Positions 11,513-42,676 of a stretch of DNA of 46,225 nt are shown here, piece by piece; position 1 is the first letter of the stretch; the number at the start of each line of letters is the position of its first letter. This DNA is from Ignavibacteriales bacterium. GTDB taxonomy: Bacteria; Bacteroidota; Ignavibacteria; UBA10030; JAHEZR01. The DNA lies in assembly GCA_037446075.1 (NCBI GenBank), contig JBBIJH010000004.1:1-46225 (forward strand). The letters are read 5' to 3'. The notes below the pieces were generated by a model. The model was not told the origin of the DNA and did no database searches. It saw nothing but the letters and a program-made list of their open reading frames with translations. Position numbers and translations under genes: made by a program.

Positions 11513-13102
11513 ATGAAGAGAAGAGATTTTCTTAGACGCGTCCTCCCCGTCACAGCACTACCCTTTGTAATCAATGGGCTTCCGCTCCGAGCGTACGGGA
11601 GATCACCATTCCTTGAGGCGCTCATTGGTGCCACAGTGGCAACGGATCGCGTTCTCGTCCTCATTCAACTGAACGGTGGGAATGATGGGATCAATACCGT
11701 CATCCCGCTTGATCAGTACTCCAGCTATTTCAATGTCCGTAGCAACATCGCCATCCCCGAAAACCAAGTTATCCGACTGACAGACGCCACTGGCCTTCAC
11801 CCCGCGATGACGGGAATGAAGAGTTTGTACGACGACGGAAAGCTCACCGTCGTGCAGGGCGTGACGTATCCCAATCCAAACCTTTCTCACTTCCGTGCAA
11901 CGGACATCTGGCTCACGGCTTCAAACTACGATGAATACCTTACGACAGGATGGATAGGGCGCTATCTTGAGTATGAGTTTCCACAATACCCGGATGGCTT
12001 TCCGAACGAAGTTATGCCCGATCCACTTGCAGTTCAGATCGGGTCGGTGATTTCTCTTGGTTTACAAGGGGCGGGTAGGACAATGGGGATCGCGATTCAG
12101 GATCCTCAAACCTTCTACCAGCTTGTGAGCAGTGGCTCGACGGGCGGGACCGACACTCCACCTCAAACTCCGGCCGGACGCGAGCTATCCTATATTCGAC
12201 AGGTTGCCCTCCAGTCTCAGCAATACGCTACCCAAGTGAAGGGTGCAGCGGACAAGGCGCAGAATCGATCGACACTGTATCCCCCGGCTAACCAGAACAC
12301 GCTTGCAGATCAACTGAGGATCGTGGCGCGGTTAATAGCGGGTGGTTTGAAGACTCGCATCTACGTTGTGAACCTTGGCGGCTTTGACAATCACTCCAGC
12401 CAGGTCGTTAGCGGAAGTCCGATGACAGGTATACATGCTACTCTTTTGGGTCGGCTGGCGACGGCTGCTCAAGCTTTTCAGGATGACCTTAGACTCCTTG
12501 GCATAGAAGACCGTGTTGTAAGTATGACGTTCTCGGAGTTCGGGCGGCGCGTGGCCTCAAATAGCAGCCTCGGGACGGACCACGGCACTGCTGCGCCAAT
12601 GTTCCTCTTTGGGAAAATCGTGAAGCCGGGAATTGTCGGGTACAATCCGAGCTTGACAGATCTCTCCAGCGGAAACCTCAAGATGCAGTACGATTTTCGC
12701 CAGGTGTATGCCTCGGTTCTCGGTCAACTGTTCAGTGCTGATCAAAGGGAACTCAGCACCGTGCTCCTGAGAAACTTCCAGCCCTTGCCGCTCGTCCAGC
12801 CGCTCGTGACCAACGTTGTGAGAGGTGAAGTTCTTCCGGCGACCTACCGTCTGTACGAGAATTATCCCAATCCATTCAACCCGACGACAACGATTTCCTA
12901 TGACCTACCCGTAGACGTTGACGTTGTTCTCAGAGTGTATGACATGCTCGGTCGGGAAGTGAGAACGCTCTTGAACGAGCGACAAGCCGCTGGCACCCAT
13001 CGAGTACTCTTCGATGCGTCAAATCTCTCAAGCGGCGCATACATCTACGAGCTTCGGGCAGGTTCGTTTATTGATCGCAAGAAAATGTTAATGATCAAGT
13101 AG
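11513..13102 (+). CDS. DUF1501 family protein with twin-arginine signal and C-terminal T9SS sorting domain
   Basis: MKRRDFLRR start; LVLIQLNGGNDG, PNLSHFRATDIW, GGFDNH, FSEFGRR, GTDHG and DFRQVY motifs; tail NYPNPFNPTTTI...SGAYIY...KKMLMIK. Confidence 0.9.
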   Translation: MKRRDFLRRVLPVTALPFVINGLPLRAYGRSPFLEALIGATVATDRVLVLIQLNGGNDGINTVIPLDQYSSYFNVRSNIAIPENQVIRLTDATGLHPAMTGMKSLYDDGKLTVVQGVTYPNPNLSHFRATDIWLTASNYDEYLTTGWIGRYLEYEFPQYPDGFPNEVMPDPLAVQIGSVISLGLQGAGRTMGIAIQDPQTFYQLVSSGSTGGTDTPPQTPAGRELSYIRQVALQSQQYATQVKGAADKAQNRSTLYPPANQNTLADQLRIVARLIAGGLKTRIYVVNLGGFDNHSSQVVSGSPMTGIHATLLGRLATAAQAFQDDLRLLGIEDRVVSMTFSEFGRRVASNSSLGTDHGTAAPMFLFGKIVKPGIVGYNPSLTDLSSGNLKMQYDFRQVYASVLGQLFSADQRELSTVLLRNFQPLPLVQPLVTNVVRGEVLPATYRLYENYPNPFNPTTTISYDLPVDVDVVLRVYDMLGREVRTLLNERQAAGTHRVLFDASNLSSGAYIYELRAGSFIDRKKMLMIK

Positions 13103-13174
13103 AAACTAATAAGGAGGAAGTAAGCAACGGAAGCTTTGTCAGAGAGTGCCTCTTCTTGCAACAGGTCCTGCGAC

Positions 13175-13199
13175 AGAGCCTCGGCAGAGGTTTTCTTTT
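13175..13199 (+). terminator. Probable intrinsic terminator after the DUF1501 gene
   Basis: agagcctc-ggca-gaggtttt hairpin (with G-U pairs) followed by ctttt. Confidence 0.5.
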
Positions 13200-13276
13200 G
13201 AAGAAGGTACATTGCACCCTCATGAAGGCTCGGGATACAAAGAGGGAGAATCTTTTAGTCTAAAGGTTGCGTTACC

Positions 13277-13305
13277 TTGATTGTTCCAGCTAATTTCGAT
13301 ATATT
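13277..13305 (+). promoter_or_regulatory. sigma70-type promoter of tRNA-Pro
   Basis: TTGATT-N17-TATATT, ending 15 nt before the tRNA. Confidence 0.6.
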
Positions 13306-13319
13306 CGGCTGAGGCTTCA

Positions 13320-13393
13320 CGGAACGTAGCGCAGCCTGGTAGCGCACCACGCTTGGGACGTGGGGGTCGCGGGTTCAAATCCCGCCGTTCCGA
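13320..13393 (+). tRNA. tRNA-Pro(TGG); CCA not encoded
   Basis: Acceptor stem CGGAACG/CGTTCCG, D arm GCGC..GCGC, anticodon arm CCACG-CTTGGGA-CGTGG, T arm GCGGG-TTCAAAT-CCCGC. Confidence 0.97.
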
Positions 13394-13433
13394 CTCATCT
13401 CTCGGCAAGTAGGACTCCTGCCCTCTTATTTTC

Positions 13434-13688
13434 TTGGTCTACGTTCTTCGCAGCCTCAAAGATGGCAAGCTCTATATCGGTCAAACGAACAATCTTCAGG
13501 ATTATCTGCTCAGACACAATCAGGGACAAGTGAGATCCACAAAGGCTAGACGTCCGCTTCAGCTCATTTACTTCGAGGTGTACAAAGCTCGCAGTGAAGC
13601 TCGAAGACGCGAGGATTTCCTGAGATCTCCTCAAGGGTGGTTGTTCCTGAAGAGCACACTCCTTCAAGCGCAGCCCATCGCAACGTGA
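13434..13688 (+). CDS. Small stand-alone GIY-YIG nuclease family protein, possibly degenerate
   Basis: VYVLRS...LYIGQT..L.....HN.G...STK..RP..LIY.E......A..RE pattern. No ATG (frame reads ATT-TTC-TTG), and the usually conserved Arg four residues before HN is Tyr. Confidence 0.8.
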   Translation: MVYVLRSLKDGKLYIGQTNNLQDYLLRHNQGQVRSTKARRPLQLIYFEVYKARSEARRREDFLRSPQGWLFLKSTLLQAQPIAT

Positions 13689-13795
13689 CCCCCGAAGGAG
13701 TCCTTCGGACCTTCGGGGGTAGCGGACCACGCTTGAGACGTGGGGGTCGCGGGTTTCCCAACGGGATCACTTCCTGACAAATGCCGCCGTTTCGA
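13679..13795 (+). pseudogene. Decayed second copy of tRNA-Pro with two inserted segments
   Basis: cgcaacgt matches the tRNA 5' end (cggaacgt). 13718-13755 matches tRNA positions 13338-13375 with 2 mismatches. A 22-nt insert (13756-13777) splits the T-loop, then caaatgccgccgtttcga matches the 3' end with 2 mismatches. Confidence 0.85.
13687..13719. repeat. About 33-bp palindromic mini-element, copy 1
   Basis: Perfect 10-bp inverted repeat cccccgaagg/ccttcggggg (13689-13698, 13710-13719); related copy at 21813-21846. Confidence 0.7.
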
Positions 13796-14348
13796 CGGCG
13801 GGTTCTTCCTCGATACAGCTTTCACTGCTTCAGAGTCATAGAGTTCGCCAGCAGAAAGGTGGCGGAGCCCAGCCTGACTCTTAGCCTGCGGGCACCCGCA
13901 CCGGGTAATCCGGCTATGAGGTCGAGCAATAAGGGTCTTTCTCACCTTCGACTCCGCCCCTCCCATTCATTCTTAAGGTCTTACCGTCTACTACCTTTAG
14001 GCCGGAAATGAGCCGGATTCTTACCTCTCGGCGCCATGGTATCGTACCATTGTTGCCTCTGAGGGGATTGATCGATCTGTGAGACCCTGTTTTTCAGCCG
14101 ATTTGACATCCCTGTGCTTGTAATTTTTACTTTTTTTCATTATCCTTCGAGCGGGTTACACTTGCTGGGAAACACAATCTACCACTCCGACAACTAATAG
14201 AAACCAGACTTGAGCATATCGTGGCGCGAGTAATCCAAAGGGGGCTTCCGTAAACTAGACCGTATCCTTCTCACATCAACCCCGTTGTATCTATCGGGAC
14301 TAATCAAAGCAATATCCAAACCCAAGAGTAAACTTCCGAGGCACTCAC

Positions 14349-15713
14349 ATGGCGACAAAAGAAGGTCGTATCTTAGTGGTCGATGATGAGGAGACATTCC
14401 GCTACATGCTTACCTCGCTCATCGAAGCGGAGGGATACACGGCTCATTCCGCCGCCGACGGGGTTCAGGGAATCAACGCCGTGCAGGCAAAAGCTTTTGA
14501 CATCGCTCTCATAGATGTGCGGATGCCAAAGGTGGACGGAGTGGAAGTGTTGAAATTCATTAAAGAATATTCGCCCGACACCGAGGCGATCATGGTGACC
14601 GCGGTTGGAGATCTCCGAATTGCTGTCGAGTGCATGAAGCTTGGTGCCTACGACTACATCACGAAGCCTTTTTCCACAGAGGAGCTCTTAGGAACTATCG
14701 AACGAGCACTGGAACGGAAACGGCTGCTGCGTGAAAACGTATTGATGAGAAAAGAGCTGTCTCGTTATGTGGGTTCCTCAGAAATTATTGGCCAAAGCCC
14801 GAATTTCCAGAAGGTGCTGGAAGTTGCTGCAAGAGTGGCCCCCACGGAATCCACAATTCTGATCCAGGGTGCTAGCGGAACCGGAAAGGAGTTAATCGCC
14901 AATTTCATTTATAAGAACAGCATGAGGAAAGATGCGCCCTTCGTTGCTTTGAATTGCGCCTCGATCCCCGATTCCCTTATCGAGAGTGAGTTGTTTGGAC
15001 ACGAGAAAGGCGCTTTCACCGATGCGCGTGCGACAAAGCAGGGACTGGTAGAGATCGCAAACGGAGGTACCCTTTTTCTCGATGAGGTTGGTGATGTGAG
15101 CATGATGGTCCAGCCGAAGCTTCTACGCTTCATCCAGACAGGAGAGTTCCGGCGTGTCGGCGGGAACAAGGTGATGAAGTCCGATGTCCGAATCATCTCG
15201 GCCACAAATAAAGACCTAGCTCAGGAAGTACGAGCAGGACGATTCCGTGAAGACCTTCTCTATCGCCTGAATGTGATCACGATTGAAATTCCTCCACTGA
15301 GAGACCGGAAGGAAGACATCCCCCTCTTTGTGGACTGGTTTCTAAAGAACAAGCTTCAGATGAAGACCCAGTGCCAGATCAGCCCCAAGGCACTGGAGGT
15401 TCTTATGAAGTATGATTGGCCGGGAAATGTGCGAGAATTGGAAAACGTGATCGAGAGGGCAGCGATCCTCTGCAATGATTATATGATCCAGCCTCAAGAC
15501 CTTTCGCTTCCGCTGAAAGCAACCATGCTTGCCTCCTCGTTCCGTGAAGAAGATGTTCTAGGCAGCCCACTACCGATGAAAGAAATCGAACGGCTTCATA
15601 TCCAAGGAGTCCTCAAAAATACAGGAGGAAACAAACCGAAGGCTGCCAAAGTGCTTGGCATTAGTCTGAAGACACTGTATACCAAGATCAGTCAGTACCA
15701 GATTCAAGTATAA
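14349..15713 (+). CDS. sigma54-dependent response regulator (NtrC/AtoC family: receiver, AAA+, Fis-type HTH)
   Basis: LVVDDE, IDVRMP (phospho-Asp), GAYDYITKPF, GASGTGKE, ESELFGHEKGAFTDA, LFLDE, RFREDLLYRLNV, WPGNVRELEN and AAKVLGIS..TLY motifs. Confidence 0.96.
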   Translation: MATKEGRILVVDDEETFRYMLTSLIEAEGYTAHSAADGVQGINAVQAKAFDIALIDVRMPKVDGVEVLKFIKEYSPDTEAIMVTAVGDLRIAVECMKLGAYDYITKPFSTEELLGTIERALERKRLLRENVLMRKELSRYVGSSEIIGQSPNFQKVLEVAARVAPTESTILIQGASGTGKELIANFIYKNSMRKDAPFVALNCASIPDSLIESELFGHEKGAFTDARATKQGLVEIANGGTLFLDEVGDVSMMVQPKLLRFIQTGEFRRVGGNKVMKSDVRIISATNKDLAQEVRAGRFREDLLYRLNVITIEIPPLRDRKEDIPLFVDWFLKNKLQMKTQCQISPKALEVLMKYDWPGNVRELENVIERAAILCNDYMIQPQDLSLPLKATMLASSFREEDVLGSPLPMKEIERLHIQGVLKNTGGNKPKAAKVLGISLKTLYTKISQYQIQV

Positions 15714-16170
15714 GTTCGGAGAGAATCACCCTTACCCTTCTTGACGGCTCTTCCTCAGGCGAAGCTGCAATCAAATGCCCCTGGGCCCCTCATGCAGCTT
15801 CGGAATCTATCCTGCATGCATATAAGGTAGAACTCTTCTTTTCCGCCGGGCCCAGCCATTTCTGTCTATTTCCTCAATATGGAATCGGGGCAGCTGCTCA
15901 AAGAACTCCCTGGACTGCCCCATTAACCACTTGCCCCTGTCACGATGCCCCGTCACCTATGTCTGCCAAGCCCGGAATTCCGCCATCCCTTTGTAGAATC
16001 TCTTAAAAAGAACTTACAAATCGTTATACCTGAGGCTGGGGTAGACTGATCCTCCTTTGAATCTGCCCGGTTCACTCTTGACCCCGTTCTCGGCAAAACC
16101 GAGTTGATTTCTGAAGTTTTGCCACCCAGAGATGAATCGTTCTCACTCGTCGACTTGCTGTGATTCCCAC

Positions 16171-16187
16171 TTGGCACAGCCGTTGAA
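16171..16187 (+). promoter_or_regulatory. sigma54 (-24/-12) promoter candidate for the TIGR03790-like gene
   Basis: TTGGCAC-AGCCG-TTGAA versus consensus YTGGCAC-N5-TTGCW; the -12 element reads GA instead of GC. Confidence 0.6.
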
Positions 16188-16246
16188 CCTCTCACTAGTA
16201 GTCATTGAGAAGTTGGCCGAATGACTCGAGGGAAGAAACCACAGAC

Positions 16247-17941
16247 ATGAAGACGAGAACGAGAACCTTCGGAAGTATCATCGGGGCGACCATGATACTT
16301 ACGGTCCATCCCACTCAGGCTGAAGGGCAGACAAATTATAACGACGTCCTTATAGTCATAAACAGTAACAGCCCGATCTCCGAGCAGGTGGGAACTTACT
16401 TTGCCAGCGTCCGTGGAGTTCCCCCGTTGAACATTGCAAGGATCAGCGTGTCAGCGAACGAGGAGATTGACAGCACCGAGTTCAACTCCTTGAGATCACA
16501 GGTGGAGAACCACATCACAAGCAACGGCCTGACGAACCAGATCAACTACATCGTTACGACGAAAGGGGTACCGTTGAAAGTAAACAGAGGGAATACGTTT
16601 TCAACAAGTTCTCCCTCTTCCTCGGTGGAAAGCGAACTCGCTTTGATTCTCGGCCCCTACGCAAGCTCGATCGGTGGGAACGGGATTGTTTTCTCACCCT
16701 ACTACTATGCGAATGCCCACTTCTCGCGGTCAACGTATGGTTTCTATCTTACAACTCGACTTGACGGCTATACTTTTGAAGACATCAAGGGGATCATTGA
16801 TCGCGGCGGGCCGAGTCAGTCGTTTTCTTCGACCGGCACGCGGTTCGTTTTTGATCAAGATCCTGAATGGAATAGCACGTTGCCTGGACTGAACAATGCG
16901 ATGGCATCTGCTCAAAACATTCTTGTCAACAGAGGACTAGGCAGTCTTCTCGACCAAACCACGACCTACCTCACGAACCAGCCATCTGTCATCGGGTATG
17001 TCAGCTGGGGAAGCAACGACCACTATGCAAGCCTCTATACACAGTACGCCAAGCCCGGGAACACCTGGGCGCCTGGCGCCATAGTGGAGACGTACGTATC
17101 GACCTCCGGCAGAACCTTTACCCAACCCGCAACCTATGGACAGTCTCTCATCGCCGATTGGATCGCGGAGGGAGCGACGGGTGCAAAGGGATACGTCTTC
17201 GAGCCGTTCTCATTTGCAATGGCCATCGTCTCTGTTCTCTTTGACCGTTATACCAACAACTACAACCTCGCGGAAAGCTACTTCATGGCTTCTCGGTCGC
17301 TGTCATGGATGGACGTTGTTATCGGCGATCCGAAGACGTCTCTGAATGCGGTCCAAGTTCCGAATCCAGTGGAACTCGCATGGTTCACGGCCGAAATCAA
17401 TGGGCTGGCGGCGGAGTTAAAGTGGGGAACAATTTCGGAAACCAATAACTACGGTTTCGAAGTACAGCGCAAAGCAGATGGAGAATCGGACTTCACAACG
17501 ATCCCTGGAAGCTTCGTTCCCGGACACGGCACTACTCTGACTCCACAGTCGTACAGTTTCGTTGATCGAAATCCGCCGTCCGGAAAGGTCTATTACCGAC
17601 TGAAGCAGATCGATCTGGACGGGACGTTCGAGTATCACGGGCCCATCGTGATTGTCAACCCTGAATCAAGTAAGAAAGCGAAAGTCTATCTCGCTCAGAA
17701 CTATCCCAACCCCTTCAACCCGTTGACGAATATCAAATTCGTCTTACCGACTCCGGACCACGTGGTCTTAAGGGTTTACAACACGGCCGGTCAGGAGGTC
17801 GCGACGCTAATCGATGGACCTCGCGAGGCGGGAGTTCATTCTGCCAAACTCGATGCCGGGCATCTTGCTAGCGGAATGTATTTCTATGTGCTCAAGACAA
17901 GCGAAATGACGATTGCACGGAAAATGATCTTGGTGAAGTAG
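16247..17941 (+). CDS. TIGR03790-like protein with Ig-like 'PVEL' module and T9SS C-terminal domain
   Basis: Signal-like N terminus; VLIVINSNSPIS..VGTYFA..RGVP..N, TTKGVP, TRLDG, ADWIAEGATGAKGYVFEP and LAESY..A...LSW..VVIGDP motifs; then PVELAWF...ETNNYGFEV...YYRLKQIDLDG and QNYPNPFNP...KMILVK. ATG at 16247 preferred over TTG at 16205. Confidence 0.8.
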   Translation: MKTRTRTFGSIIGATMILTVHPTQAEGQTNYNDVLIVINSNSPISEQVGTYFASVRGVPPLNIARISVSANEEIDSTEFNSLRSQVENHITSNGLTNQINYIVTTKGVPLKVNRGNTFSTSSPSSSVESELALILGPYASSIGGNGIVFSPYYYANAHFSRSTYGFYLTTRLDGYTFEDIKGIIDRGGPSQSFSSTGTRFVFDQDPEWNSTLPGLNNAMASAQNILVNRGLGSLLDQTTTYLTNQPSVIGYVSWGSNDHYASLYTQYAKPGNTWAPGAIVETYVSTSGRTFTQPATYGQSLIADWIAEGATGAKGYVFEPFSFAMAIVSVLFDRYTNNYNLAESYFMASRSLSWMDVVIGDPKTSLNAVQVPNPVELAWFTAEINGLAAELKWGTISETNNYGFEVQRKADGESDFTTIPGSFVPGHGTTLTPQSYSFVDRNPPSGKVYYRLKQIDLDGTFEYHGPIVIVNPESSKKAKVYLAQNYPNPFNPLTNIKFVLPTPDHVVLRVYNTAGQEVATLIDGPREAGVHSAKLDAGHLASGMYFYVLKTSEMTIARKMILVK

Positions 17942-17944
17942 AAC

Positions 17945-18952
17945 ATGTACCGTCAACTTAGAGTCGCAACGATCCCCAGACCTCTCTCTGATCAGCTCCA
18001 GGGCGCACATGACCGTCCTCTTGTCGTGCACCCGAGGATGGCCTGGATTCTTTACTACGAACAAAAACGAAACGTCCGTGCAGTGTGTCAGAAGTTCGGC
18101 ATCAGTCGGAAGACATTTTATAAATGGCTGAAGCGCTACCGAAAGTCGAACGGTGACCCGGCAAGCCTCGTTGATGTTTCTCGAAGACCGCACCGCTTCC
18201 CAAGAGCGACATCCCGGGAGGTCCTCCAGATCCTTCTTCAGGTGAAGAAAGAGACTGGATACGGGCAGCGCCGATTGAAACAATACTTGGCCGAAAAGTA
18301 CAACATCTCGATCTCCGAACACACGATCTGGAAGCTCCTTAAGCGCTATAACGGGGACAACGGCCTTGGTGTTCATGCAACACCATCTACTCCTGAGATC
18401 AGACCAGGGAGCATCGTTCAAATCGTGGTTCGAAATATCGCCCCGTACATCAATCAGCACGAATATGTTCAGTACACGGCGTTCGATGCATGCACGAAAT
18501 TGAGAATTTCGAAGGTCTACCGAAAATACTCCTGGCGAAGTGCGGCTGACTTTGTAAAGTTGGCCATCGAGAGATTTCCGTTTAGTATCAAGGAGCTACA
18601 AACACCGGAGGATGATCCCTTTACAAATTCTCAAGCTGGCAATGAAATCTCAACGATAATGTGCGAACCTGTGCCCGCGCTTCTCGAGAAGGCGAACATC
18701 AAACATACTGTTCTCCCAGAGGATCAATTGAAACAGACACCGGCTATGAAACTGCTGCAGGAGGAGGACGAGGAGTTCTTCAAACGAAACTCGTACCGAA
18801 AATTGGATGATCTGATCCGTGCCGCCGCAGAGTACGTGACCGTGTACAACAACCATCGGAAGCATAGCGATCTCAATGGCCTGACGCCATTACAAAAGCT
18901 TCGATCATATCCGGAGTACAAGAATATCGTCTATTTTGACCCGTATGCCTGA
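17945..18952 (+). CDS. IS481-family transposase homolog with intact HTH domains but no DDE triad (likely domesticated)
   Basis: VCQKFGISRKTFYKWLKRY, SRRPH, YG.RRL, ISEHTIWKLLKR, QYTAFD, FPFSI and YNNHRKHSDLNGLTP motifs. Catalytic motifs are altered (VQIVVR, QTPEDD, PAMKLL). No terminal inverted repeats were seen. Confidence 0.8.
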   Translation: MYRQLRVATIPRPLSDQLQGAHDRPLVVHPRMAWILYYEQKRNVRAVCQKFGISRKTFYKWLKRYRKSNGDPASLVDVSRRPHRFPRATSREVLQILLQVKKETGYGQRRLKQYLAEKYNISISEHTIWKLLKRYNGDNGLGVHATPSTPEIRPGSIVQIVVRNIAPYINQHEYVQYTAFDACTKLRISKVYRKYSWRSAADFVKLAIERFPFSIKELQTPEDDPFTNSQAGNEISTIMCEPVPALLEKANIKHTVLPEDQLKQTPAMKLLQEEDEEFFKRNSYRKLDDLIRAAAEYVTVYNNHRKHSDLNGLTPLQKLRSYPEYKNIVYFDPYA

Positions 18953-19729
18953 AGCGATCACCCCGCGCATCAGTAGAACAGCCCGCAGCAGCGCCAGAGT
19001 CCTCCTGAGGTCTGCATCGCATGGGGTGAGAGCTACAGGCTACGGAAGATCTATTCCCTCAAGCATCAAGTTACTGTCTGAACCTTTTTCTCTACTAGTT
19101 CTTCCCAGTGGTTGAACTCTGCAATCCACCCCTTTCTCCGTGTAACAATTCATTGACTCGTAATCGCCAGACTAAGAGAGCGGCTGGCCCGCGTCAACAC
19201 CATTTAACCCTTGGTCCTCCGACAAGAGCGGAATTGACACGGAGTCAGGTAAACACCCATGACTCAAGGCAAAAGGAGATTCATTGAAGTCATGTCGTAG
19301 CAAGCATCTTGGCATTCGCTGATGACAGTGTATCCACTTTGAGAAACAAACTGTCTCGGCAAGATGCAGCAACTGCGCTTATAGGAAGAACTTTAGGTCG
19401 TCCCTACAACCGCTTCTTAATCTGCAGAGATGTTCTCAAGCTTGCCCCAGAACTCGGCTAATGTGAAGTTGAACAGCGAGTAGTTGAACGCATTTCCTTG
19501 AGATCTCTCTTGTCTCAACTTATGCGTGCTACAGACTGGACAGGATAAGGATTCCTCAGTCCGGGGAGTCGACACGGCATTCCTTCAACGTACGAGGATA
19601 TGCATTACCCGAAGGGCATGATACCTATGAACTCCGTTTGAGTGAGTTCAGTAACCACCGTACCTATGGCCCTTCTCCATAGTCCGAAACCTATCAGCAG
19701 ACATCGCTCCTAAGGATTTCCCAAACTTC

Positions 19730-19758
19730 TTGACTTGCGAACACACATCATATAAATT
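19730..19758 (+). promoter_or_regulatory. sigma70-type promoter about 430 nt upstream of the next gene
   Basis: TTGACT-N17-TAAATT. Confidence 0.55.
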
Positions 19759-20185
19759 TGTTCCAAGCCTGCCGCCTGTCTACGACCCGACGTGTTGGGT
19801 CGCAGAGAAGAAAGATTAGATTGAAAATTCGCTATGGCGAAGTGAAGAGATAGCGGTTAATGAGAAAGTTTGTACATCTGATCCTCTATCGAACAATCAA
19901 AGATCCCGTGACGGGGAAACAAGTAGCTATTCTTTGTACATGGATCATTATCGTTTTGTAACCAGAGTCACTGATGTGCAGAAATTGCTATAGAACTTTC
20001 ACTAAGATCACCTATCCCTTGAGACTCTCTGCAACATATTTTCCACAACAGGATCGTCGAGCAGAAGAGACAGGTTACAGCTCGAGGAAGTTGATACGCA
20101 GGTACCGATTCATACAATTCATGATTGTCCGACAAAGAAACTAGCTCACAACACTCAAAACAACCTTCCGAAAGGAAAAGGGGAG

Positions 20186-21367
20186 ATGAAAAACCTGATA
20201 AGAGTTGCCGTATGTCTTCTGGTATCAGGATTGCTGCTGACCCTGGTTTTGCCACCAGGCGCGACGGGGCAAGTCTCAAGCTTTCCGTATTCTTATACGT
20301 TTACACTCGGGGCAAATCAGAACCCCATAACGGGAGACGGAAACTGGAGTTCCCAGGCCAGCGGGGCAAGTGACTGGAAAGGAAAGACCGCCGGTGGTAC
20401 TTCCGGCGGAAGTGCAGAACATGGTAAGTTCAAGACCTCAGGTCACTATGCACGGTTGAGGGTACAGCTGAACACAACAGGAGTCGTCTATACTGGAGGA
20501 GAACTTTTCGAGTTTAATATAAAAAGGGCAGGTGACGGTACCCCTGCGGGTAATGCCGCCGCAACTATCACAATTGAATATTCCACTGACGGTGTCAACT
20601 ATACCACCATATCCGGCCCTACGGCCCTGTCCACCTACTTGCCCACTACTAACTACACCTTTAAAAGTCACTCATTGCCAGCGGGAGTCGGTGGCAATGC
20701 TAGCGTATACATCGCGATAAGAGTCCAATCCGGCAGCAACTCCGACAACCACGATAAACTGAACGTAGATGATGTTTCCATTAGTGGCGGCACCCTTCCC
20801 ATCCAGATGGCCTCAGCTTCTTCAGCGGTCATCCGTGACAACGACGTGGAAGTTGCGTGGAGAACTATCTCTGAGACGAATAACTACGGCTTCGAGATCC
20901 AGCGGAGACGAGGAGACGTGGGCGAGTGGGGCCAGATCGCTTTCGTCGAAGGACACGGAACGACCCTGTCTCCCCAATCCTACTCCTATGTCGATCGTGG
21001 CCTGGCTTTCGGAAAGTACTACTACCGCATCAAGCAGATCGACTTGGATGGAACGTCCGAGATCTTCCCTGAGATGGAAGTCAACGTCGGCCTCGCCCCA
21101 GACAAGCTGGTCCTCGCACAAAACTATCCGAACCCCTTCAACCCGAGTACGCTGATTGACTTTGCGGTACCGATCAGTGGACATGCGTCAGTAAAAGTGT
21201 ATAATGTACTCGGCCAGGAGGTGGCCACACTGTTTGAAGGGAACGCAGAGGCTGGCAGGATTTACATTGCTCGATTCGATGCGTCGCGTTTATCAAGCGG
21301 GATGTACTTCTACGCCCTCAGATCTGCAGGCAAGGTCGAGACGAAGCGGATGCTCTTACTCAAGTAA
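20186..21367 (+). CDS. Secreted T9SS cargo: small G/S/T-rich beta-sandwich passenger, 'LPIQ' Ig-like module and CTD
   Basis: Good RBS (aaggggag), Sec signal, IEYSTDG...VYIAIRV...NVDDVSISG passenger, then LPIQMAS...ETNNYGFE...QNYPNPFNP...KRMLLLK. Confidence 0.85.
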   Translation: MKNLIRVAVCLLVSGLLLTLVLPPGATGQVSSFPYSYTFTLGANQNPITGDGNWSSQASGASDWKGKTAGGTSGGSAEHGKFKTSGHYARLRVQLNTTGVVYTGGELFEFNIKRAGDGTPAGNAAATITIEYSTDGVNYTTISGPTALSTYLPTTNYTFKSHSLPAGVGGNASVYIAIRVQSGSNSDNHDKLNVDDVSISGGTLPIQMASASSAVIRDNDVEVAWRTISETNNYGFEIQRRRGDVGEWGQIAFVEGHGTTLSPQSYSYVDRGLAFGKYYYRIKQIDLDGTSEIFPEMEVNVGLAPDKLVLAQNYPNPFNPSTLIDFAVPISGHASVKVYNVLGQEVATLFEGNAEAGRIYIARFDASRLSSGMYFYALRSAGKVETKRMLLLK

Positions 21368-21393
21368 CGGTTTCTGGTGGAGCAGGAGATTAG

Positions 21394-21455
21394 CCTCCCC
21401 GGCGCCGTTCCAAGCGGACTACAGGAGGAAGTGGTCCGGTGAACAGCCGGGGAGG
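21394..21455 (+). other. Long nested hairpin downstream of the 20186 gene
   Basis: cctccccggc/gccggggagg (10-bp perfect) enclosing gttc/gaac and cggactac/gtggtccg, with an aggaggaa loop. Confidence 0.55.
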
Positions 21456-21472
21456 TGACCAATGTAGCATCG

Positions 21473-21510
21473 ACCCCGTGGTTCCATGTGAGCCACAGGG
21501 TTTTTCTTTT
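21473..21510 (+). terminator. Intrinsic terminator
   Basis: acccc-gtggttc-catgt-gagccac-agggt hairpin followed by ttttctttt. Confidence 0.7.
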
Positions 21511-21664
21511 GCTTAATAAGGCCCCGGAAGGCGGCAAACACGCTGCCAGAGGGGCTTTGCTGCTTGTCCTTCTGTTCCCGTTGAAGCAGACATCCGACGG
21601 TCCCGGTCAGGGGAGCGCGACCGAACAGGAGAATTTCATCCGTCGGAGTTCGCCTTCTCGCCAT

Positions 21665-21688
21665 GACAGGACGGGAGTCCCGTCCTAC
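21665..21688 (-). repeat. GTAG-type REP-like palindrome
   Basis: Minus strand reads GTAG-GACGGG-ACT-CCCGTC-CTGTC; 9-bp perfect stem aggacggga/tcccgtcct. Confidence 0.6.
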
Positions 21689-21812
21689 TCGAAGAGTGAA
21701 AAACAGAAGCGAGATTGCTTCCCTGCCTGCGCTCGCAATCATACCTCGATGGACTTTTTGGACAGCCCCGACCTCCACTGATGTTCTGCAAAATAAGCCC
21801 CCGGCTTGTCGC

Positions 21813-21846
21813 GACCCTCCGAAGGAGTCCTACAGACCCTCAGGAG
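21813..21846. repeat. About 33-bp palindromic mini-element, decayed copy 2
   Basis: gaccctccgaaggagtcctacagaccctcaggag aligns to gacccccgaaggagtccttcggaccttcggggg (13687-13719) with 1 indel and 5 substitutions. Confidence 0.65.
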
Positions 21847-22156
21847 AGAATTTACGGGAACGATCGCTATAAGTTAGGTTCAGAGATAGGTGACTTTGCT
21901 CTGGAAGCACTTCGGCGAGTTTTCTCGGCCAAAAGATCGTTCACTTTGCGGCACCGTGTAACAAAATAAAAAAACGGGTGCCTCAAGGTATTACAGAGTT
22001 GGAACCATGTCACTTGATCGTCTCCATTTCTTTTTTTTCGTGCCACTATGTGACTTGATAGTCTCTCACTACTTCCTCGTTTTTCCCCTTCATTTGGGCC
22101 AGTACGCTCTGTTGTGAAACTCTTCAGCACTGTAGATCGCCTATTCCGCGTTTTCT

Positions 22157-22173
22157 CTGGCATAGTGGTTGCA
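22157..22173 (+). promoter_or_regulatory. sigma54 (-24/-12) promoter for the lipoprotein-cargo unit
   Basis: CTGGCAT-AGTGG-TTGCA, near consensus, ending 58 nt before the ATG at 22231. Confidence 0.8.
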
Positions 22174-22230
22174 ATACTAGTAGACAATAATGCTCAATCA
22201 ATGTTCGACCAATCTAAAGAGGCATAACCA

Positions 22231-22818
22231 ATGAAACGCTTCGATCTTTTACCCAAAATAACATTGCTGGTCTGGATAGCAATCGTGGCACAGGGGTGTC
22301 AGAAGGCGGGCCCAGTTGAGCCAGCTGATGGATCAACCAAACAAGCGCCTGCGTTCATCAAGCTGCCGAAGAACAACGCGCTCCACAAGATCATCTCCGT
22401 GACGAAGACGATCTATGCTCAGAGTGGTGGCGAACTGAAGCTCAATTACGACTATGGTGAAGGGGCCAAGAAGGTCAACATCGACGTAAGCCTCAAGTTT
22501 GAACCGGGGTCGGTCAGCCGAGATGTGGATATCACCCTGAGTGTGGATGATGCCGTGCTCATGACCACTATCGACCTCTCGTTTGCGCCTGAGGGTCTCG
22601 TGTTCCTGAAGCCCGCTATCCTTGACGTTAACGCCCAGGGCTTGGATCTTTCCGGCATTCCTCCCGGAGCAAACATCAATCTCTATTATTTTAATAAGCA
22701 GACGGGCACATGGGAGCAAATACCGACGAGGAGAATTTCTGTCAACATCTCCAACGGACAGCTACAATGCAAGGACGGCGAGATTCCTCACTTCTCACGG
22801 TATGCTTTCGGCTATTAG
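22231..22818 (+). CDS. Lipoprotein with ZU5-like domain ending in an HFS motif
   Basis: Lipobox AQG-C; F.PEGLVF.KPA.L...LYYFN..TG.W......V.......G.I.HFSRY pattern. Confidence 0.7.
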   Translation: MKRFDLLPKITLLVWIAIVAQGCQKAGPVEPADGSTKQAPAFIKLPKNNALHKIISVTKTIYAQSGGELKLNYDYGEGAKKVNIDVSLKFEPGSVSRDVDITLSVDDAVLMTTIDLSFAPEGLVFLKPAILDVNAQGLDLSGIPPGANINLYYFNKQTGTWEQIPTRRISVNISNGQLQCKDGEIPHFSRYAFGY

Positions 22819-25050: not shown

Positions 25051-25215
25051 ATCCTTGGGCTCTCCTACGGTTTGCTCACGACAGCGTAGCGGCACCCCGG
25101 GAATACACATAGGTATCATGGATTCCCCTTGGAATTCTCATAGCCGGTTATCACGAGAACGCATCGATGTTTCCCTCGCATTGATATCGTTCATCTCCGC
25201 TGCCAAACCTCAGCC

Positions 25216-25228
25216 TGTAACTCTTACA
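25216..25228. promoter_or_regulatory. Candidate upstream activator site
   Basis: Perfect palindrome TGTAA-CTC-TTACA about 105 nt upstream of the sigma54-like promoter at 25334, with A-tracts in between. Confidence 0.5.
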
Positions 25229-25333: not shown

Positions 25334-25349
25334 CGGCACGGAATTTGAA
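25334..25349 (+). promoter_or_regulatory. sigma54 (-24/-12) promoter candidate
   Basis: CGGCAC-GGAAT-TTGAA; same GA variant at -12 as the 16171 site. Confidence 0.55.
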
Positions 25350-30465: not shown

Positions 30466-33400
30466 TCACCTCACCTTCGCCATCCTCTGGGTTTGAACGA
30501 CCGTGCTTTCTCCATTCTTTAAGACAAGGCTGTAGAAATAGACACCATTCGCCACCTCATTCCCATCGTTATCGCGCCCATCCCAACGGACTCGATTGAA
30601 CCCAAAGCGCAGGGAGCTTACCGGCACTTCAATGGATCGGATCAAACGCCCAGCGACGGTGTAAATTTTGATCGTGAGGTTATCAGGAAGGTGTGCTCCA
30701 GTGAGGTTGAAGGTGAAATCGGTTTCGGATGGAAAGGGGTTGGGGTAGTTATAGACGTTCAGGAGCTGAGGGGTCGTCTCGACACTGAAATCCACCCGAT
30801 AAGTCGCGCCGCCCGCCAAGTTCTCCGAAGCATCTCGTGCGTCAACAAGAAGTGTGTGTCCTCCTTTTTCCAGCGTGGGTCGGAACTGAACTTCGACTTT
30901 TTTGTTACCACTCACCGTCGAATCAAACGTGATCTGAGGATTCCCTGCATAAAGAATCCGTCGGTTGTCAAGTCGGAGCGTCACACTCCCGGTATCCCGA
31001 ATGGCAAGTGGACTGTTATCGAAGAGCCTGACGAGAATCGTCGGCTGTGCCGACACATAATCGCCGCTGACGATCGGAAGGCCGTCGAAGGTAACCTGAA
31101 GCTCCGGCGGGACGGTATCTTTCCGGACATAAAAAGTCCGAGTGGCGGTATTATTGATGTCGTAAAGTTCGGGCTGGCCGAGCGGATCAAGGGCTACGAC
31201 GAGTGTCTGCGTGGCACGACGACCTACAGTATTCAACGATGCTGCAACAGTTTTTGACCGCTCCGCCTCGAGAGTATCCACACGTACCGAAGCGAATAGC
31301 TGCCGCGTGTTACCTGGACCAACTGTATAAAAATTTACTCTCAGACTGTCCATTGTTGTGTAGCCGATGTTATGGACTTCTACCGTGAATTCTATTGGCT
31401 CGCCTTCAAGGACAGAATCTCGCTTTATGCTAACCAGCTGCGGTGCAATGGCTAGATCAGGTGGGCCTTCGTAATCGACGGACCAAGTTTTCAGTACCGG
31501 CGTCGCAGTCCCGAAATTACTGTACAGGAAAGCCTGGAGCTTCAGGGCTGGATAGATCTTCGCATCAATCCCACTGAGGTCGGCGACCAAAATGGTTTTC
31601 GGTAGAGTATCGATAACAGCATTTGTCCTCGCGTCGATGATTCTCAAGGAGATATCAGTCCCCGCGTCGGGAGCGTTGTTTTCCCAACTGATTGAATTCC
31701 AGCGTCTCGCTGGCCCGATTTTCCCTGTTTTCAGTCTGCCCACCCGAGCGCGGTAGTAGCTGGGGATAACATAGCTAACCTCGGCAACGCCGTCCTTGCT
31801 ATAACTTTCACGAACGAACCCTGTTCGTTTCTGTGCCAGCAGGGCCCAGGATTCTCCCGGTCGCACCGATCGAATCTGTTGCGCGCCGAGGGATTCCAGA
31901 GCGAGGTAGAGGTTCTCATTGACGTTCGTGTATCCATCGAAGATTACGGTGATCCCAATAAAATCATCTGGAGAAATCTGTGCAAGATACCGAGCCATGC
32001 TGTCGGCAAGGCTGGTAGAACTTTGAACATCGAACGGTCGGTGTTGAAATTCTCCACTCAATTCACTGATCCTGGCCACCATGAATGCGCTTCCTACTTC
32101 CCACCAGAGGCCAGTCGCAGTTTGGGGCCCAACTCTGATGATACTATAGTAGTCCCGGTCGGCATTGTTCCGATACCCCAACGATCGGACATAGATGGGT
32201 ATTCCCCCCAGCCGTACAATCGTTACACCCGAATCGGTGACTTCGGTTTGGTAGTTTTCTCCTGTTGTAAACTGATCTCGACTTCTCTGGCTCCACCGAA
32301 TTTTCCCCGCTGGCGGAGCGGAAGCAGAGATAAGAAACGATGACACCATCCAGGCGCTCGTATCTCTCCCGTCATAACTGCGCGTACGCCAGTAGTAGAG
32401 GCCGTCCGTTGTCAATGGGGGGGTTGTCCATCTGGAAGTGAGAACGCCCGCGTCGATTGCCGGAGAAGCAACCTTTCGCGGACTGTTAAACTGCGCGCTG
32501 GTGTCGACTTCAAAGAAATATTTTAGAAGGGCGCTGGGAGAGGTCGTAGGGCTGTTTATCTCCAGAACCTGTGAGCCTCTGGGCACAACCGAGGAAGGCG
32601 CTGGCCTTAGAGGCAGAATCTTGCTGGCAAAGACTTGAACCGGCAACTCGATTTGATTGTTTAGCTTGCTCACTTCGACGACTCGGTTCGCAGGGTCGAT
32701 CTGTACCGAGACAACGTGATTGCCCGCCTTTCCAAGGACATCCCAGAGCGCAATCAGAGAATCGCTCGTGCCGATGGACGGCAGGCTGTACGTCCCTCTT
32801 CCAATTGGCAGATTGCTTCCATTGAAATTATCTGCCAGTCTCACTTGAACGCTATCCCGGGGAACCAGGCCGAAGTTTTTGATGGTCGCGCGAATCCGGA
32901 CTATGCTATCGACTTCCGCTGGGACAGCGGGCTGAAATGACACGTTTGGCTCCCTGACCTCCAGCTCAGGCATCGTTGGCAAAGCCAATGCCGCGGTCGG
33001 ATCGCCAAGAAGTGGATGTAAACCCACACCAGCAATGATTCGAGGAGAGGTGGGCGAAACCTTCCAGAGATCGATGCGTGCAATGGTCGTTAACTTCCCC
33101 ATATTCCGGACCGTATCTCTCGCCATTGACCGCAAGAAGGAGTCTGTCAGGATCCGACCGATATCGATGTAGCCAAGACTGGAGCCTGCCCAGGCCCCAA
33201 TGGCCGCCCTCTGGTTGGCCAGAAGCCAGTCCTCGGTGAGAACGTTTTGAACCGGGTCAGCAAACGCCGCCACGTTGCAACTAACGCTGGAGATAAACAC
33301 GAATTGGCCGTTCGTATTGCGAAGTGCATTTGGATCACCAGCATCCACTCCCCAGATGCGACCGCCGGAGTGGCCGATGAAGTTGAGGAAGAGCGTTCCC

Positions 33401-35926: not shown

Positions 35927-36676
35927 TTATTTTTTTTTCTGTCCGATAGCGGCTCTCAACACACGTGCGATAAAGAGCGGATTGCCAAAGACGTACCGTT
36001 TGAAAAGTCTCCTCGGTTCGTGGACCAGACGATAGAGCCATTCGAGTCCGTGCCGGGCCATCCACCGGGGACAGCGCCGCTTCCGACCCGAGACATAATC
36101 AAAGCAGGAACCAGCAGTGAGGACTAAATTGACATTGAGTCGGTTTCGATATTTCATCAACCACTGCTCCTGAAGCGGCATCCCAAAACCGACAAGGAGA
36201 ACCGCCGGGCGCAATTGATTAATTTCCTCAATGATTTTCTCGGAGGCAGGGCCATCCTTCTCGAAATAACCATGATGGCAGCCGACAAGTTTCAGCTGGG
36301 GAAATCTCTCCTTTATTCTCTTCGCAGCATCGCCGACAACTTCACTTTTTGAACCCAGCAGATAGACACTGGCTCCCCTAAACTCGCATATTCGGAGAAG
36401 ATCCCAAACCCAATCTGTCAGTGCAATTCGCTCGGGAATCTGAGAACCCAGCAATTTCGCTCCGAGCCGCACCCCTTCCCCATCGCAGTAAGCAACGTCG
36501 GCGCTATTGAAAAACTCGGCAAGCCGTTCGTCATTGTATGCCAAGTTGATGCCATGAACGTGGATATAAGCAAGCGTAGCCCTTGAGCCGTTCTCAAGAA
36601 TTTGCTCAACGCGGCCATTCAATGATGCAGTCGTGAAGGGGTCAATCGCTACACCAAGAACATTCACGCGCCTCAC
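35927..36676 (-). CDS. WecB/TagA/CpsF family glycosyltransferase (GT26)
   Basis: CDGEGV, VYLLG, HHGYF, VGFGMPLQE.W, P.WM...GLEWLYRL..EP.RL.KRY motifs. Confidence 0.95.
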   Translation of the reverse strand: MRRVNVLGVAIDPFTTASLNGRVEQILENGSRATLAYIHVHGINLAYNDERLAEFFNSADVAYCDGEGVRLGAKLLGSQIPERIALTDWVWDLLRICEFRGASVYLLGSKSEVVGDAAKRIKERFPQLKLVGCHHGYFEKDGPASEKIIEEINQLRPAVLLVGFGMPLQEQWLMKYRNRLNVNLVLTAGSCFDYVSGRKRRCPRWMARHGLEWLYRLVHEPRRLFKRYVFGNPLFIARVLRAAIGQKKK

Positions 36677-37830
36677 GCCCCCATCCTCACCCGAGATTCA
36701 TGATCAGCAAGATAGAACTGCTTGACTTTCTCAAAGACCTCGTCTAACGAGATCAGCGTCATACACGGAGCCCACTTTCGTATGCAATCCTCTTGATCGC
36801 ATGGGCTGCATTCAAGTTTTTTATAGAGGAATGAGTCGGCTCCTACGCGAGGGCCTGTAAGCTCAGGTGGCGCAGGTCCGAAGAGTCCCACAATCGGCGT
36901 CCCGACTGCAGCCGCGAGGTGCAGAGGACCGGAGTCGTTCCCGATAAAGCAACGTGAGCGAGCAATCACAGCTGCAAGCTGATTGAGGTCAAGTCCTAAG
37001 ACAAAGCTAACCCGTGGGTATTCACTGAATTCATGAATAAGCGGAAGAAGATAGCTCCGATCGCCCTCAGAGCCGATAACGAGGACACGATCAGAAGTAA
37101 AGTCGATAATTCGGCTGATCAGTTCCCTGAAGTTGCTCAGCGGCCAGGCGCGATAACTCCAGCTTGCGCAAGGATGGACAACAACGTAGGTCTGGTCGTC
37201 TATGAATCTTTGAGCATCACTGGGCAGCTTCTTTGCCTCTATCAGAGGTCTTAGGAACCCGATAGCGTCGGACTGCGGTGGAGTCGGCATTCCTAACGCC
37301 ATCGTCAGATGCTCCACCCGCTTGCCGATGCTTCGAACACCCTCCGAGGCCCGATTCGCGAGAGAGAAGCCTATCGAGAGCACCCGATGCGATTGCAGAT
37401 GGACCACTTTTGCACGGCTGTAGTCAAGGTAGCCACACTTGTATCTTGCTCCGCTGAGAAGAGCAAGGAGCCCATGGCGAACCGATGGGCTTGCGCTGAC
37501 AACAAGATCGAATCTCTTAAGCCGGATCTCTCGAACAGTCTGAAGGAACTGACTAAAACGCAAGGAGGGCAGGGAAGCGAAGACACCATCGACGTGAGGG
37601 AGAAGCTTGAGAAGACTCGCATGACTTGGCTGTACCATCGCCCAGAGAGAAGCTTGCGGGAAAAAATTTCTGAGAGCTGGGAACAGGGGAAGAGATACTA
37701 TAAGATCTCCGAGTTTTGTGAGTTCGATGACTAAAATCCGCTTCATGCTCCCTCTGGGAAGGTCGTTCTCCCCACGTATGAAGGAGAGAGTTCTCTTGAT
37801 GAACAACAAACAATTATACAGGAACCTCAT
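36673..37830 (-). CDS. Glycosyltransferase family 9 (heptosyltransferase-like)
   Basis: ILVI....LGDL, VVHP.A....R.WP, IGNDSGPLHLAAAVGTP.VGLFGP motifs and C-terminal CSPC..C..C. ATG at 37830 preferred over the ORF-track start at 37902. Confidence 0.9.
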   Translation of the reverse strand: MRFLYNCLLFIKRTLSFIRGENDLPRGSMKRILVIELTKLGDLIVSLPLFPALRNFFPQASLWAMVQPSHASLLKLLPHVDGVFASLPSLRFSQFLQTVREIRLKRFDLVVSASPSVRHGLLALLSGARYKCGYLDYSRAKVVHLQSHRVLSIGFSLANRASEGVRSIGKRVEHLTMALGMPTPPQSDAIGFLRPLIEAKKLPSDAQRFIDDQTYVVVHPCASWSYRAWPLSNFRELISRIIDFTSDRVLVIGSEGDRSYLLPLIHEFSEYPRVSFVLGLDLNQLAAVIARSRCFIGNDSGPLHLAAAVGTPIVGLFGPAPPELTGPRVGADSFLYKKLECSPCDQEDCIRKWAPCMTLISLDEVFEKVKQFYLADHESRVRMGA

Positions 37831-37991
37831 CTTCGGGATAGGCTCAATTTTCAAACAATATAAAGATTGAGTAGGTAAATAACAACTGAATTTCGGGCGC
37901 ACTCCACAAGCTCGGCCTCAGCAACCGAAAATAGGAAGATGTTTGAGAAGCACGGAAAGGTGAGAACCTGCGGAAGGAACACGGCTATCGC

Positions 37992-39131: not shown

Positions 39132-39146
39132 CTGAGAACAAAACGT

Positions 39147-42631: not shown

Positions 42632-42676
42632 AGTGAAGTCCTGTGAAACGGACCGAACTGAGTCGCTAAGTTGCTT

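Follow-up and report, generated by a model that had tools for sequence, protein, structure and literature searches.

A catalytically dead, single-copy IS481-type transposase gene behind a TIGR03790 gene in Ignavibacteriales is likely a domesticated host gene

We analysed a 46,225 nucleotide (nt) stretch of an Ignavibacteriales genome (assembly GCA_037446075.1, contig JBBIJH010000004.1), hereafter the window, which contains at 17945-18952 on the plus strand an uninterrupted open reading frame (ORF) of 335 codons whose product, P0001 (335 amino acids, aa), is an intact protein of the type encoded by the IS481 family of insertion sequences (IS). A preliminary description of this DNA, made from its letters, had reported this full-length, uninterrupted ORF and read it as a likely domesticated transposase gene coupled to a host gene, and its coordinates and translation are as described there. 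The host gene belongs to the TIGR03790 family and encodes a protein with a C-terminal sorting domain of the Type IX secretion system (T9SS). Its TAG stop codon ends at 17941 and the ATG of the P0001 gene begins at 17945, so that the gap of 3 nt (AAC) is as had been claimed. The genome of the window (G000) comprises 2.9 Mb in 268 contigs and is 95% complete; G, L and P numbers below stand for genomes, loci and proteins. The features of the two genes are as follows, D1 and D2 being the columns of the first and second catalytic aspartates of the aspartate-aspartate-glutamate (DDE) triad.

16205-17941, plus strand: TIGR03790-family protein with T9SS C-terminal sorting domain, likely true start ATG 16247 (MKTRTR...), from NCBIfam and Pfam
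17945-18952, plus strand: catalytically dead IS481-derived gene (P0001, 335 aa), from the ORF, the IS481 model alignment and membership of the DDE-less clade
18032-18358, plus strand: N-terminal DNA-binding region with helix-turn-helix (HTH) 1 (residues 30-75), leucine-zipper region and winged HTH 2 (91-138), from Pfam and the helices of an AlphaFold2 model
18413-18856, plus strand: RNase H-like (integrase/transposase) core without catalytic triad, residues 157-304, from the AlphaFold2 topology and Foldseek
18425-18427, plus strand: V161, D1 column, codon GTG, from alignments with DDE-intact relatives
18605-18607, plus strand: P221, D2 column, codon CCG, from alignments with DDE-intact relatives
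18746-18748, plus strand: M268, catalytic glutamate column, codon ATG, from an alignment anchored on the conserved downstream D-E-E-F

The N-terminal region is the best-conserved part of P0001, and HTH-only relatives are 54-66% identical to it. Pfam matches to HTH_23, HTH_28, HTH_32, HTH_29 and LZ_Tnp_IS481 all exceed their cut-offs, core matches are limited to C-terminal pieces of rve_2/rve_3, and the Pfam scan of P0001 gave no match to rve (PF00665). The NCBIfam IS481 model NF033577 nevertheless aligns end to end (residues 31-318 to positions 2-283 of 284) with a score of 141.5 bits, which is below the curated cut-off of 224. An AlphaFold2 model built from a 43-sequence alignment has a mean predicted local distance difference test score (pLDDT) of 82.5 over the whole protein, with helices at 30-75 and 91-138 (pLDDT mostly >85), a disordered linker at 138-148 and a core of the order beta1-3/alpha/beta4/beta5/alpha, the strands lying at 157-164, 175-181, 187-192, 217-221 and 253-257. 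The best Protein Data Bank matches of this model in Foldseek are IstA transposase, TnsB and retroviral integrases. As modelled, P0001 retains the RNase H-like fold and has lost DDE chemistry.

Alignments with DDE-intact relatives place V161 and P221 in the two aspartate columns, just where the preliminary description had seen an Asp to Val (GTG, 18425) and an Asp to Pro (CCG, 18605) replacement: the motif VQVDIK reads VQIVVR in P0001, and TDNDSVF/TDNGxEF reads TPEDDPF. Under the genetic code these changes require two (D to V, GTG) and three (D to P, CCG) base changes, as expected from the statement that each needs several substitutions. For the glutamate, the loss of the acidic residue stands, but the column falls on M268 and not on K269 (AAA, 18749), one residue off the earlier assignment. 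To place P0001 among its homologs, we used a word-indexed search that found 150 proteins, 120 of which were listed, and aligned 107 of full length (285-370 aa). Among these listed matches, 71 have no Asp at D1 or D2, whereas 36 are D-D-E; both columns are acidic in 0/71 of the former and in 36/36 of the latter. In the 71, the D1 column is occupied by A (21), S (12), F (12), T (11), G (11), V (3) and R (1), and the D2 column by P (54), V (4), I (3), T (3), K (3), N (2), H (1) and R (1). The glutamate column is acidic in 38 of the 71 against 36/36 intact relatives, and is not acidic in P0001 or its two nearest relatives.

Could other residues have taken over? The preliminary description had named alternative acidic residues in the active site as a finding that would speak against domestication, and there are none: the three positions are occupied by V, P and M in P0001, and nothing acidic is seen within four residues of V161. 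Acidic residues E222, D223 and D224 come right after P221, of which D223 is the conserved one (58/71 acidic). These two partly acidic columns (D223 and the glutamate), in an RNase H-like fold that is under purifying selection, are what would speak for a recombinase or nuclease with a non-canonical active site, for example one performing site-specific inversion at the TGTA...TACA palindromes described below. We regard such an enzyme as extremely unlikely, as no member of the clade is acidic at D1 or D2, D223 goes back to the TDNDSVF motif of the sister group, where the same position is a non-catalytic Asp, and the core has been dropped by whole lineages.

The proteins without the aspartates belong together. 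In a FastTree phylogeny of 115 rows, all DDE-less rows form one clade of 79 (71 database proteins and eight taken from genomes) with support 99, and in an IQ-TREE analysis (LG+C20) of 44 chosen rows the 25 DDE-less representatives again form one clade with a Shimodaira-Hasegawa-like approximate likelihood ratio (SH-aLRT) support of 100. Its sister group, and the proteins among which it is nested, are DDE-intact IS481 proteins. Of 1.84 billion cluster representatives searched exhaustively with a profile, 149 matched at E <=1e-30, the 12 top full-length matches (451-305 bits) all being without D1 and D2 and all full-length matches from the 13th (295.8 bits) downward being D-D-E; 28 of the 149 are short HTH-only proteins. 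Open full-length orthologs of P0001 are seen down to 35% identity. The DDE-less clade splits into three subclades, with P0001 in subclade A. These comparisons show the descent of the P0001 family from IS481 and a clade-wide loss of D1 and D2, a loss that, on these trees, took place once.

What an active element of this kind looks like can be seen in metagenome contigs (loci L135-L138), from which we took the inverted repeats of the sister elements. These contigs encode proteins 56-63% identical to the DDE-intact protein P0068 and possess terminal inverted repeats of ~28 nt (TGT...ACA), which read TGTA...ATAGACATRGGTAACAC; on the right side, repeat and ORF end overlap. One sister element was found at two sites, with a 14-15 bp target duplication at one of them. 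Unlike these, the P0001 gene has neither flanking TGT...ACA inverted repeats nor a target duplication. The absence of terminal repeats that had been noted before holds for the whole of 15700-20200, where none of 22 short inverted-repeat pairs brackets the ORF, and the further copies with inverted repeats which the preliminary description would have had us seek are missing as well, G000 holding a single copy of the gene and no further IS481-family match. Among the relatives, 19 of 41 genomes match P0001 at E <=1e-10, and almost every one of these has a single match. Of 401 sampled genomes across the phylum, 17 match at E <=1e-30 and all 17 are from the order of the window, whilst in a sample of 151 genomes of that order one family has a match in 28/32 genomes, almost always a single one. 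The single-contig genome G113 is among the holders of one match. Records of the related loci are labelled as Ignavibacteria-type or Bacteroidota metagenome-assembled genomes (MAGs), with a few odd labels.

Selection was assessed in pairs of genomes. Between G040 and G023 (84% aa identity), non-synonymous divergence (dN) is 0.10 and synonymous divergence (dS) ~2.7, with a ratio of 0.017 in the HTH part and 0.048 in the core; between G000 and G002 (64% identity), the proportion of non-synonymous differences (pN) is 0.218 against a saturated synonymous proportion (pS) of 0.852, with pN/pS of 0.18 in the HTH region and 0.27 in the core, and as synonymous sites are saturated in all pairs these ratios are upper bounds and not estimates. 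Non-synonymous change is thus far below the (saturated) synonymous change in HTH and core alike, the outcome which had been proposed as a sign of selection. Because the core ratios are low, the dead core too is constrained in the lineages compared. On the nucleotide and protein sequences at hand, we consider the immobility, single-copy status and purifying selection of the P0001 gene to be shown. The missing catalytic residues, and the name 'transposase' that some sources give the protein, might suggest a recently inactivated IS copy, a pseudogene that happens to be still open. Its probability is close to nil: recent decay is refuted by the full-length open orthologs down to 35% identity, the lack of D1 and D2 in all 71 aligned DDE-less homologs, dN far below dS, synteny across families of the order and the lack of inverted repeats. 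The earlier choice of domestication over a dying IS is upheld by much the same points, together with the single copy and the lack of alternative acids.

The upstream partner scores 177.6 bits with the NCBIfam model TIGR03790 (cut-off 67), also contains a Por_Secre_tail domain, and has a hydrophobic N-terminus that resembles a signal peptide. An AlphaFold2 model of it (16247-17941) is mediocre (pLDDT 68), and its structure matches are weak, whole-chain ones to gingipain K (query-normalised TM-score, TMq, 0.31) and PorU in which C-terminal Ig-like domains dominate. No publication mentioning the name TIGR03790 was found among the titles and abstract beginnings of the open literature.

In subclade A, G002, G003 and G027 have the TIGR03790 gene as immediate upstream neighbour in the same orientation, and G011 and G016 have it there with HTH-only forms of the family, the linked genomes covering three families of the order (f1, f2, f7). 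Among 80 species-representative related loci, of which 54 encode long and 26 short forms, it is the upstream neighbour in 15 (six long, nine short); the syntenic orthologs that the preliminary description had suggested looking for therefore exist. Viewed from the other gene, TIGR03790 is present in 11 of 41 relatives, counting G000, and the other ten all hold a member of the P0001 family, adjacent in 7/10 and unlinked in 3/10. In subclade B, a DUF4905 gene is followed by one for an Fe-S oxidoreductase, the latter at most two genes upstream of the family member (29/80 loci), and both subclades B and C retain the dead protein without a TIGR03790 gene. A PorU-like C25 sortase gene lies downstream in convergent orientation in 11/80 loci, where it faces HTH-only relatives. 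Comparison of these loci shows a conserved gene order for the P0001 family.

Further details of the neighbourhoods were seen along the way. The order in subclade B (L045-L084; for example L052 2992-7642 and L059 6943-7635) is DUF4905, a ~667-aa Fe-S oxidoreductase (TfrB/LdhH-like) and the dead transposase, the next gene encoding either an OmpR-type response regulator or an unnamed ~200-aa protein. In the third subclade, a gene for a small SET-domain protein follows the family member (L040 7050-7499; cluster c8 in L041, L043 and L044).

The 3 nt coupling to the TIGR03790 gene and the co-occurrence of the two genes across genomes, as well as the PorU-like sortase gene downstream in 11/80 loci (in the window at 30466-35913), would also fit a host protein that does not act on DNA, for instance one that scaffolds or chaperones the TIGR03790 protein or the T9SS/PorU-like machinery encoded nearby. 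We consider this very unlikely: the conserved part of P0001 is a classical double HTH, and the protein persists in subclades B and C, where the TIGR03790 gene is lacking. Moreover, the TIGR03790 protein, with its T9SS sorting domain and signal-peptide-like N-terminus, should be exported, whereas P0001 should stay in the cytoplasm, no export signal having been noted in it, although no predictor was run.

Upstream of the gene pair lie a promoter-like element, a palindrome and an activator gene, and similar elements recur further along the window.

14349-15713, plus strand: sigma-54 activator with receiver, AAA+ and Fis-type HTH domains, from Pfam (Sigma54_activat 236 bits, Response_reg, HTH_8)
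15991-16019, plus strand: imperfect palindrome TTGTAGAAT-N14-TTACAA, beginning ~180 nt upstream of the -24/-12 element, a conserved candidate regulator-binding site
16172-16187, plus strand: sigma-54-type -24/-12 element TGGCACAGCCGTTGAA, 60 nt ahead of ATG 16247, from conservation
22158-22173, plus strand: sigma-54-type element TGGCATAGTGGTTGCA, exact match, 57 nt before the ORF at 22231 (T9SS cargo), from a pattern match
25334-25349, plus strand: sigma-54-type element CGGCACGGAATTTGAA, one mismatch, before the T9SS-cargo gene at 25448, from a pattern match
30466-35913, minus strand: giant PorU-like C25 peptidase, 1814 aa, from Pfam (Peptidase_C25, Propeptide_C25, CARDB, FlgD_ig)

The preliminary description had assumed transcription from a sigma-54 promoter, and the element in question, which reads TGGCAC-N5-TTGAA at 16172 in the window, turned out to be conserved. 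When the upstream regions of G000 and G002 are compared, the sole strongly conserved block is one of 21 nt (95% identity) centred on TGGCACAGCCGTTGAA. TGGCAY-N5-TTGAA stands ahead of the TIGR03790 gene in 6/17 loci examined, and in three loci from which the TIGR03790 gene is missing (L035, L036, L038) TGGCAT-N5-TTGAT is found ~45 nt directly before the dead-transposase gene. The palindrome, TTGTAGAAW-N13-16-TWACAA across loci, begins ~145-200 nt upstream of the -24/-12 element; its TTGTAGAAW half is invariant in ten related loci and also present in G019, and a scan of the entire genomes of G000 and G002 gave one match to the pattern in each. Promoter and palindrome travel with the dead-transposase gene, being kept where the TIGR03790 gene is missing. 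Matches to TTGTAGAA, the reverse complement of the conserved T-F-Y-K codons of the HTH motif, occur on the minus strand within homolog genes in L164, L168, L169 and L172; these are probably coincidental and should not be counted as sites.

The adjacent activator (14349-15713) is the likely candidate for driving the operon promoter. Its ortholog in G002 is 87% identical and in the same position, orthologs 65-67% identical are encoded on other contigs in G003, G011, G016 and G027, and the best match in G038 is only 55% identical. Within the 3 nt gap between the TIGR03790 and P0001 genes no terminator-like site was called.

Looser palindromes of the form TGTAR-N2-32-TTACA occur at five sites in the window (nine strand matches against 1.73 expected; 0/100 shuffles reach nine), and four of the five are intergenic, ahead of the activator gene (14119), the operon (15992) and the promoter-like elements at 22158 and 25334. 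The TGTAA...TTACA palindromes at 21957-21995 and 25216-25228 lie 105-200 nt upstream of the latter two elements, and with the site ahead of the activator gene included the distances span 105-230 nt. The activator may regulate its own gene through the palindrome at 14119-14160, TGTAAT...GGTTACA, which precedes that gene by ~190 nt. Of these palindromes, the 17-kb locus of G002 conserves none but the one ahead of the TIGR03790 gene, with two matches against 1.5 expected. The TGTAAC hexamer named in the preliminary description is, taken alone, not enriched in the window (17 matches against 11.75 expected).

Three of these hexamers, at 19141, 19957 and 20074, fall in the ORF-poor stretch at 18953-20185, which extends for 1.2 kb after the P0001 gene, has no ORF >=80 aa in its first kilobase, and is overlapped at its end, from 19968, by two short doubtful ORFs. 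An Rfam scan of 13000-22500 gave only a tRNA at 13320-13393 and nothing in 18953-20185, and comparison of this downstream intergenic region between G000 and G002 gave no conserved block and no similarity.

The palindromes invite a bolder idea, that they are relics of IS ends, still recognised by the dead transposase and now serving as enhancer-like sites of the sigma-54 circuit; an IS481 transposase and its ends would in this way have been recruited together, the protein acting as co-activator or architectural factor for sigma-54-dependent expression of surface proteins. The conserved palindrome opens with TGTAGAAW and the repeat of the sister element in L138 with TGTAGAGT, TGTAGA being common to both; the L138 terminal inverted repeat begins TGTAGAGTTTATGG, and the palindrome ends read TGT...ACA, like a miniature IS. 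We hold this idea to be rather unlikely. The activator itself could be what uses these sites as enhancers, conservation in the G002 locus does not extend to the extra ones, and the inner motif of the sister repeats is not found beyond chance: the sub-terminal motif ATAGACATRGGTAACAC has one match in the window, ATACACATAGGTATCAT at 25103-25119 on the plus strand with three mismatches, which is intergenic and ~215 nt before the promoter-like site at 25334 but is not significant alone (expectation 0.09, at least one match in 9/100 shuffles).

In the NCBIfam search, the PorU-like protein matches 'putative T9SS sortase PorU2' with 433.6 bits, just below the cut-off of 450, and its gene lies beyond four T9SS-cargo genes. 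It is adjoined at 35927-46197, on the minus strand, by genes for glycosyltransferases (WecG/TagA, two GT9, GT1/GT4), a PMT-like protein and methyltransferases, a set that may form a surface-glycan module next to the T9SS cargo genes.

Some members of the P0001 family occur in reduced or rebuilt form. HTH-only proteins of 143-189 aa are encoded at 26/80 loci and form one clade inside the TIGR03790-linked subclade A (support 92 on 111 columns, which limits its resolution); at most of these loci there is no trace of the core downstream. In G019 (L010) and G033 (L016), the core is decaying behind a retained N-terminal region, with one and three stop codons, respectively, and remnants downstream, and G019 keeps the palindrome and promoter despite the decay of its core. 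The protein of L087 is partly truncated. Two metagenome proteins of 261 aa (P0087 and P0088) consist of a receiver domain (residues 3-113) fused to the HTH of the family and nest in the HTH-only clade. What the HTH-only, core-decaying and receiver-fused forms have in common is the N-terminal DNA-binding region, which suggests that this region is preserved by selection in every form and is the retained working part.

These forms also bear on a further alternative, that the protein is a transposition inhibitor or immunity factor. Truncated or inactive transposases act as inhibitors in other systems, for example Tn5 Inh and IS911 OrfA, and a dead transposase that binds IS ends and multimerises could similarly poison the transpososomes of related IS481 invaders. 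P0001 has kept its end-binding N-terminal region as well as the core fold, DDE-intact sister elements with intact ends are present in metagenomes, and a search of 151 genomes of the order for an active sister IS found no close copy, the best matches (<=38% identity) being the dead family itself. This lack of active elements is equally expected, however, if there is nothing to inhibit, whilst the operon positions behind host genes and the sigma-54 promoter point to a host function and the HTH-only and receiver-fused derivatives suit a regulator better. An inhibitor is on these grounds improbable.

We conclude that P0001 is most plausibly a domesticated (exapted) IS481 transposase, kept as a single-copy host gene and likely acting as a DNA-binding regulator expressed from a sigma-54 operon with the TIGR03790 gene, with a probability of roughly 0.78 for this reading as a whole. 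Domestication in itself is strongly supported by the comparisons above, which indicate that a single bacterial order has retained the gene over a very long period in the manner of any other host gene. In the course of events that we propose, an ancestor within the order carried an IS481-like element that became immobile, the transposase lost the two catalytic aspartates, and its gene has persisted since then in single copy as a gene of the host. In the window it would now be the second gene of a two-gene operon behind the TIGR03790/T9SS-cargo gene, driven from the conserved sigma-54-type promoter with its upstream palindrome. The protein would be incapable of DDE chemistry and would bind DNA in a sequence-specific manner via its double HTH and leucine zipper, presumably as a transcription factor or an architectural factor, whilst the dead RNase H-like core may be kept as a structural or oligomerisation module.

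Several points weigh against this reading or parts of it. DNA binding, regulation of the T9SS or surface locus, co-transcription and the role of the core are all things that we infer. The -12 element reads TTGA, where TTGC is usual, and it is equally conceivable that the palindrome serves the sigma-54 activator as upstream activating sequence. Not every locus has the gene pair: 65/80 have other neighbours, and the two genes are unlinked in G008, G031 and G040. The trees include the three catalytic columns, the very trait by which the 'dead' and 'DDE' groups were told apart, and the selection ratios are bounds, as stated above. Finally, nearly all the genomes are MAGs, in which repeated elements assemble poorly; conserved unique flanks and near-complete genomes argue against hidden extra copies.

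The comparison with known systems helps to place a domesticated P0001. With IS481 transposases (NF033577; the nearest DDE-intact ones are the P0068 group, L135-L138) it shares the HTH, leucine zipper, winged HTH and RNase H-like core, the end-to-end model alignment and the C-terminal YNNHRxH..L.G.TP motif, yet it is without D1, D2 and E and scores 141.5 bits against the 224 required. Its gene, unlike IS481 elements, has no repeats or target duplication and is present as a single copy in a fixed position under purifying selection. P0001 accordingly lacks what marks an active IS481 element in its triad, model score, inverted repeats and copy number. In eukaryotes, the domestication of DDE transposases is textbook knowledge, CENP-B, which is derived from pogo, being one example. 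Arabidopsis ALP1/ALP2 are described as domesticated transposases from PIF/Harbinger which have lost catalysis (PMC7282668). As with ALP1/ALP2 and CENP-B, P0001 would be a host protein conserved among species in which the fold and the binding parts are kept and mobility and catalytic residues are lost; it differs from them in that the family is bacterial and IS481-derived, is associated with an operon with a sigma-54-type promoter, and has HTH-only and receiver-fused derivatives.

To our knowledge, the known prokaryotic domestications of transposases involve other enzyme classes. TldR regulators, for example, are TnpB-derived, nuclease-dead proteins used as transcription factors. RAYTs are reported to be a prokaryotic domestication of the Y1 transposases of IS200/IS605 (PMC3333891). 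P0001 resembles both in being a single-copy, vertically kept descendant of an IS-encoded protein, but its family is of the DDE/RNase H fold class, and no guide RNA or repeat family like that of repetitive extragenic palindromes (REP) was found for it. The HTH-only forms have a parallel of their own: OrfA of IS3-family elements such as IS911 is an HTH-leucine-zipper protein, and the HTH-only forms (143-189 aa) share this HTH and zipper architecture, but in contrast to OrfA they occur outside any IS, at a conserved site behind TIGR03790 or before the PorU-like gene. Among titles and abstract beginnings in the open literature, we found no publication on IS481 together with a domesticated transposase, and none on a bacterial domesticated DDE transposase, the matches being eukaryotic or unrelated (subscription journals lay outside this coverage).

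The retention of a dead transposase as a host gene is rarely documented in bacteria, and the present case, although not categorically new, is relevant to the biology of mobile DNA and to gene regulation in the Fibrobacteres-Chlorobi-Bacteroidetes (FCB) group. It also has a consequence for annotation, as the label 'transposase' from some sources inflates mobile-element counts in Ignavibacteria-type genomes. A single bacterial order shows a series from active sister elements with repeats, through dead full-length, core-decaying and HTH-only forms, to a receiver fusion, and this series would make a good system for learning by what route a selfish DNA-binding enzyme turns into a host regulator and why its dead core is kept.

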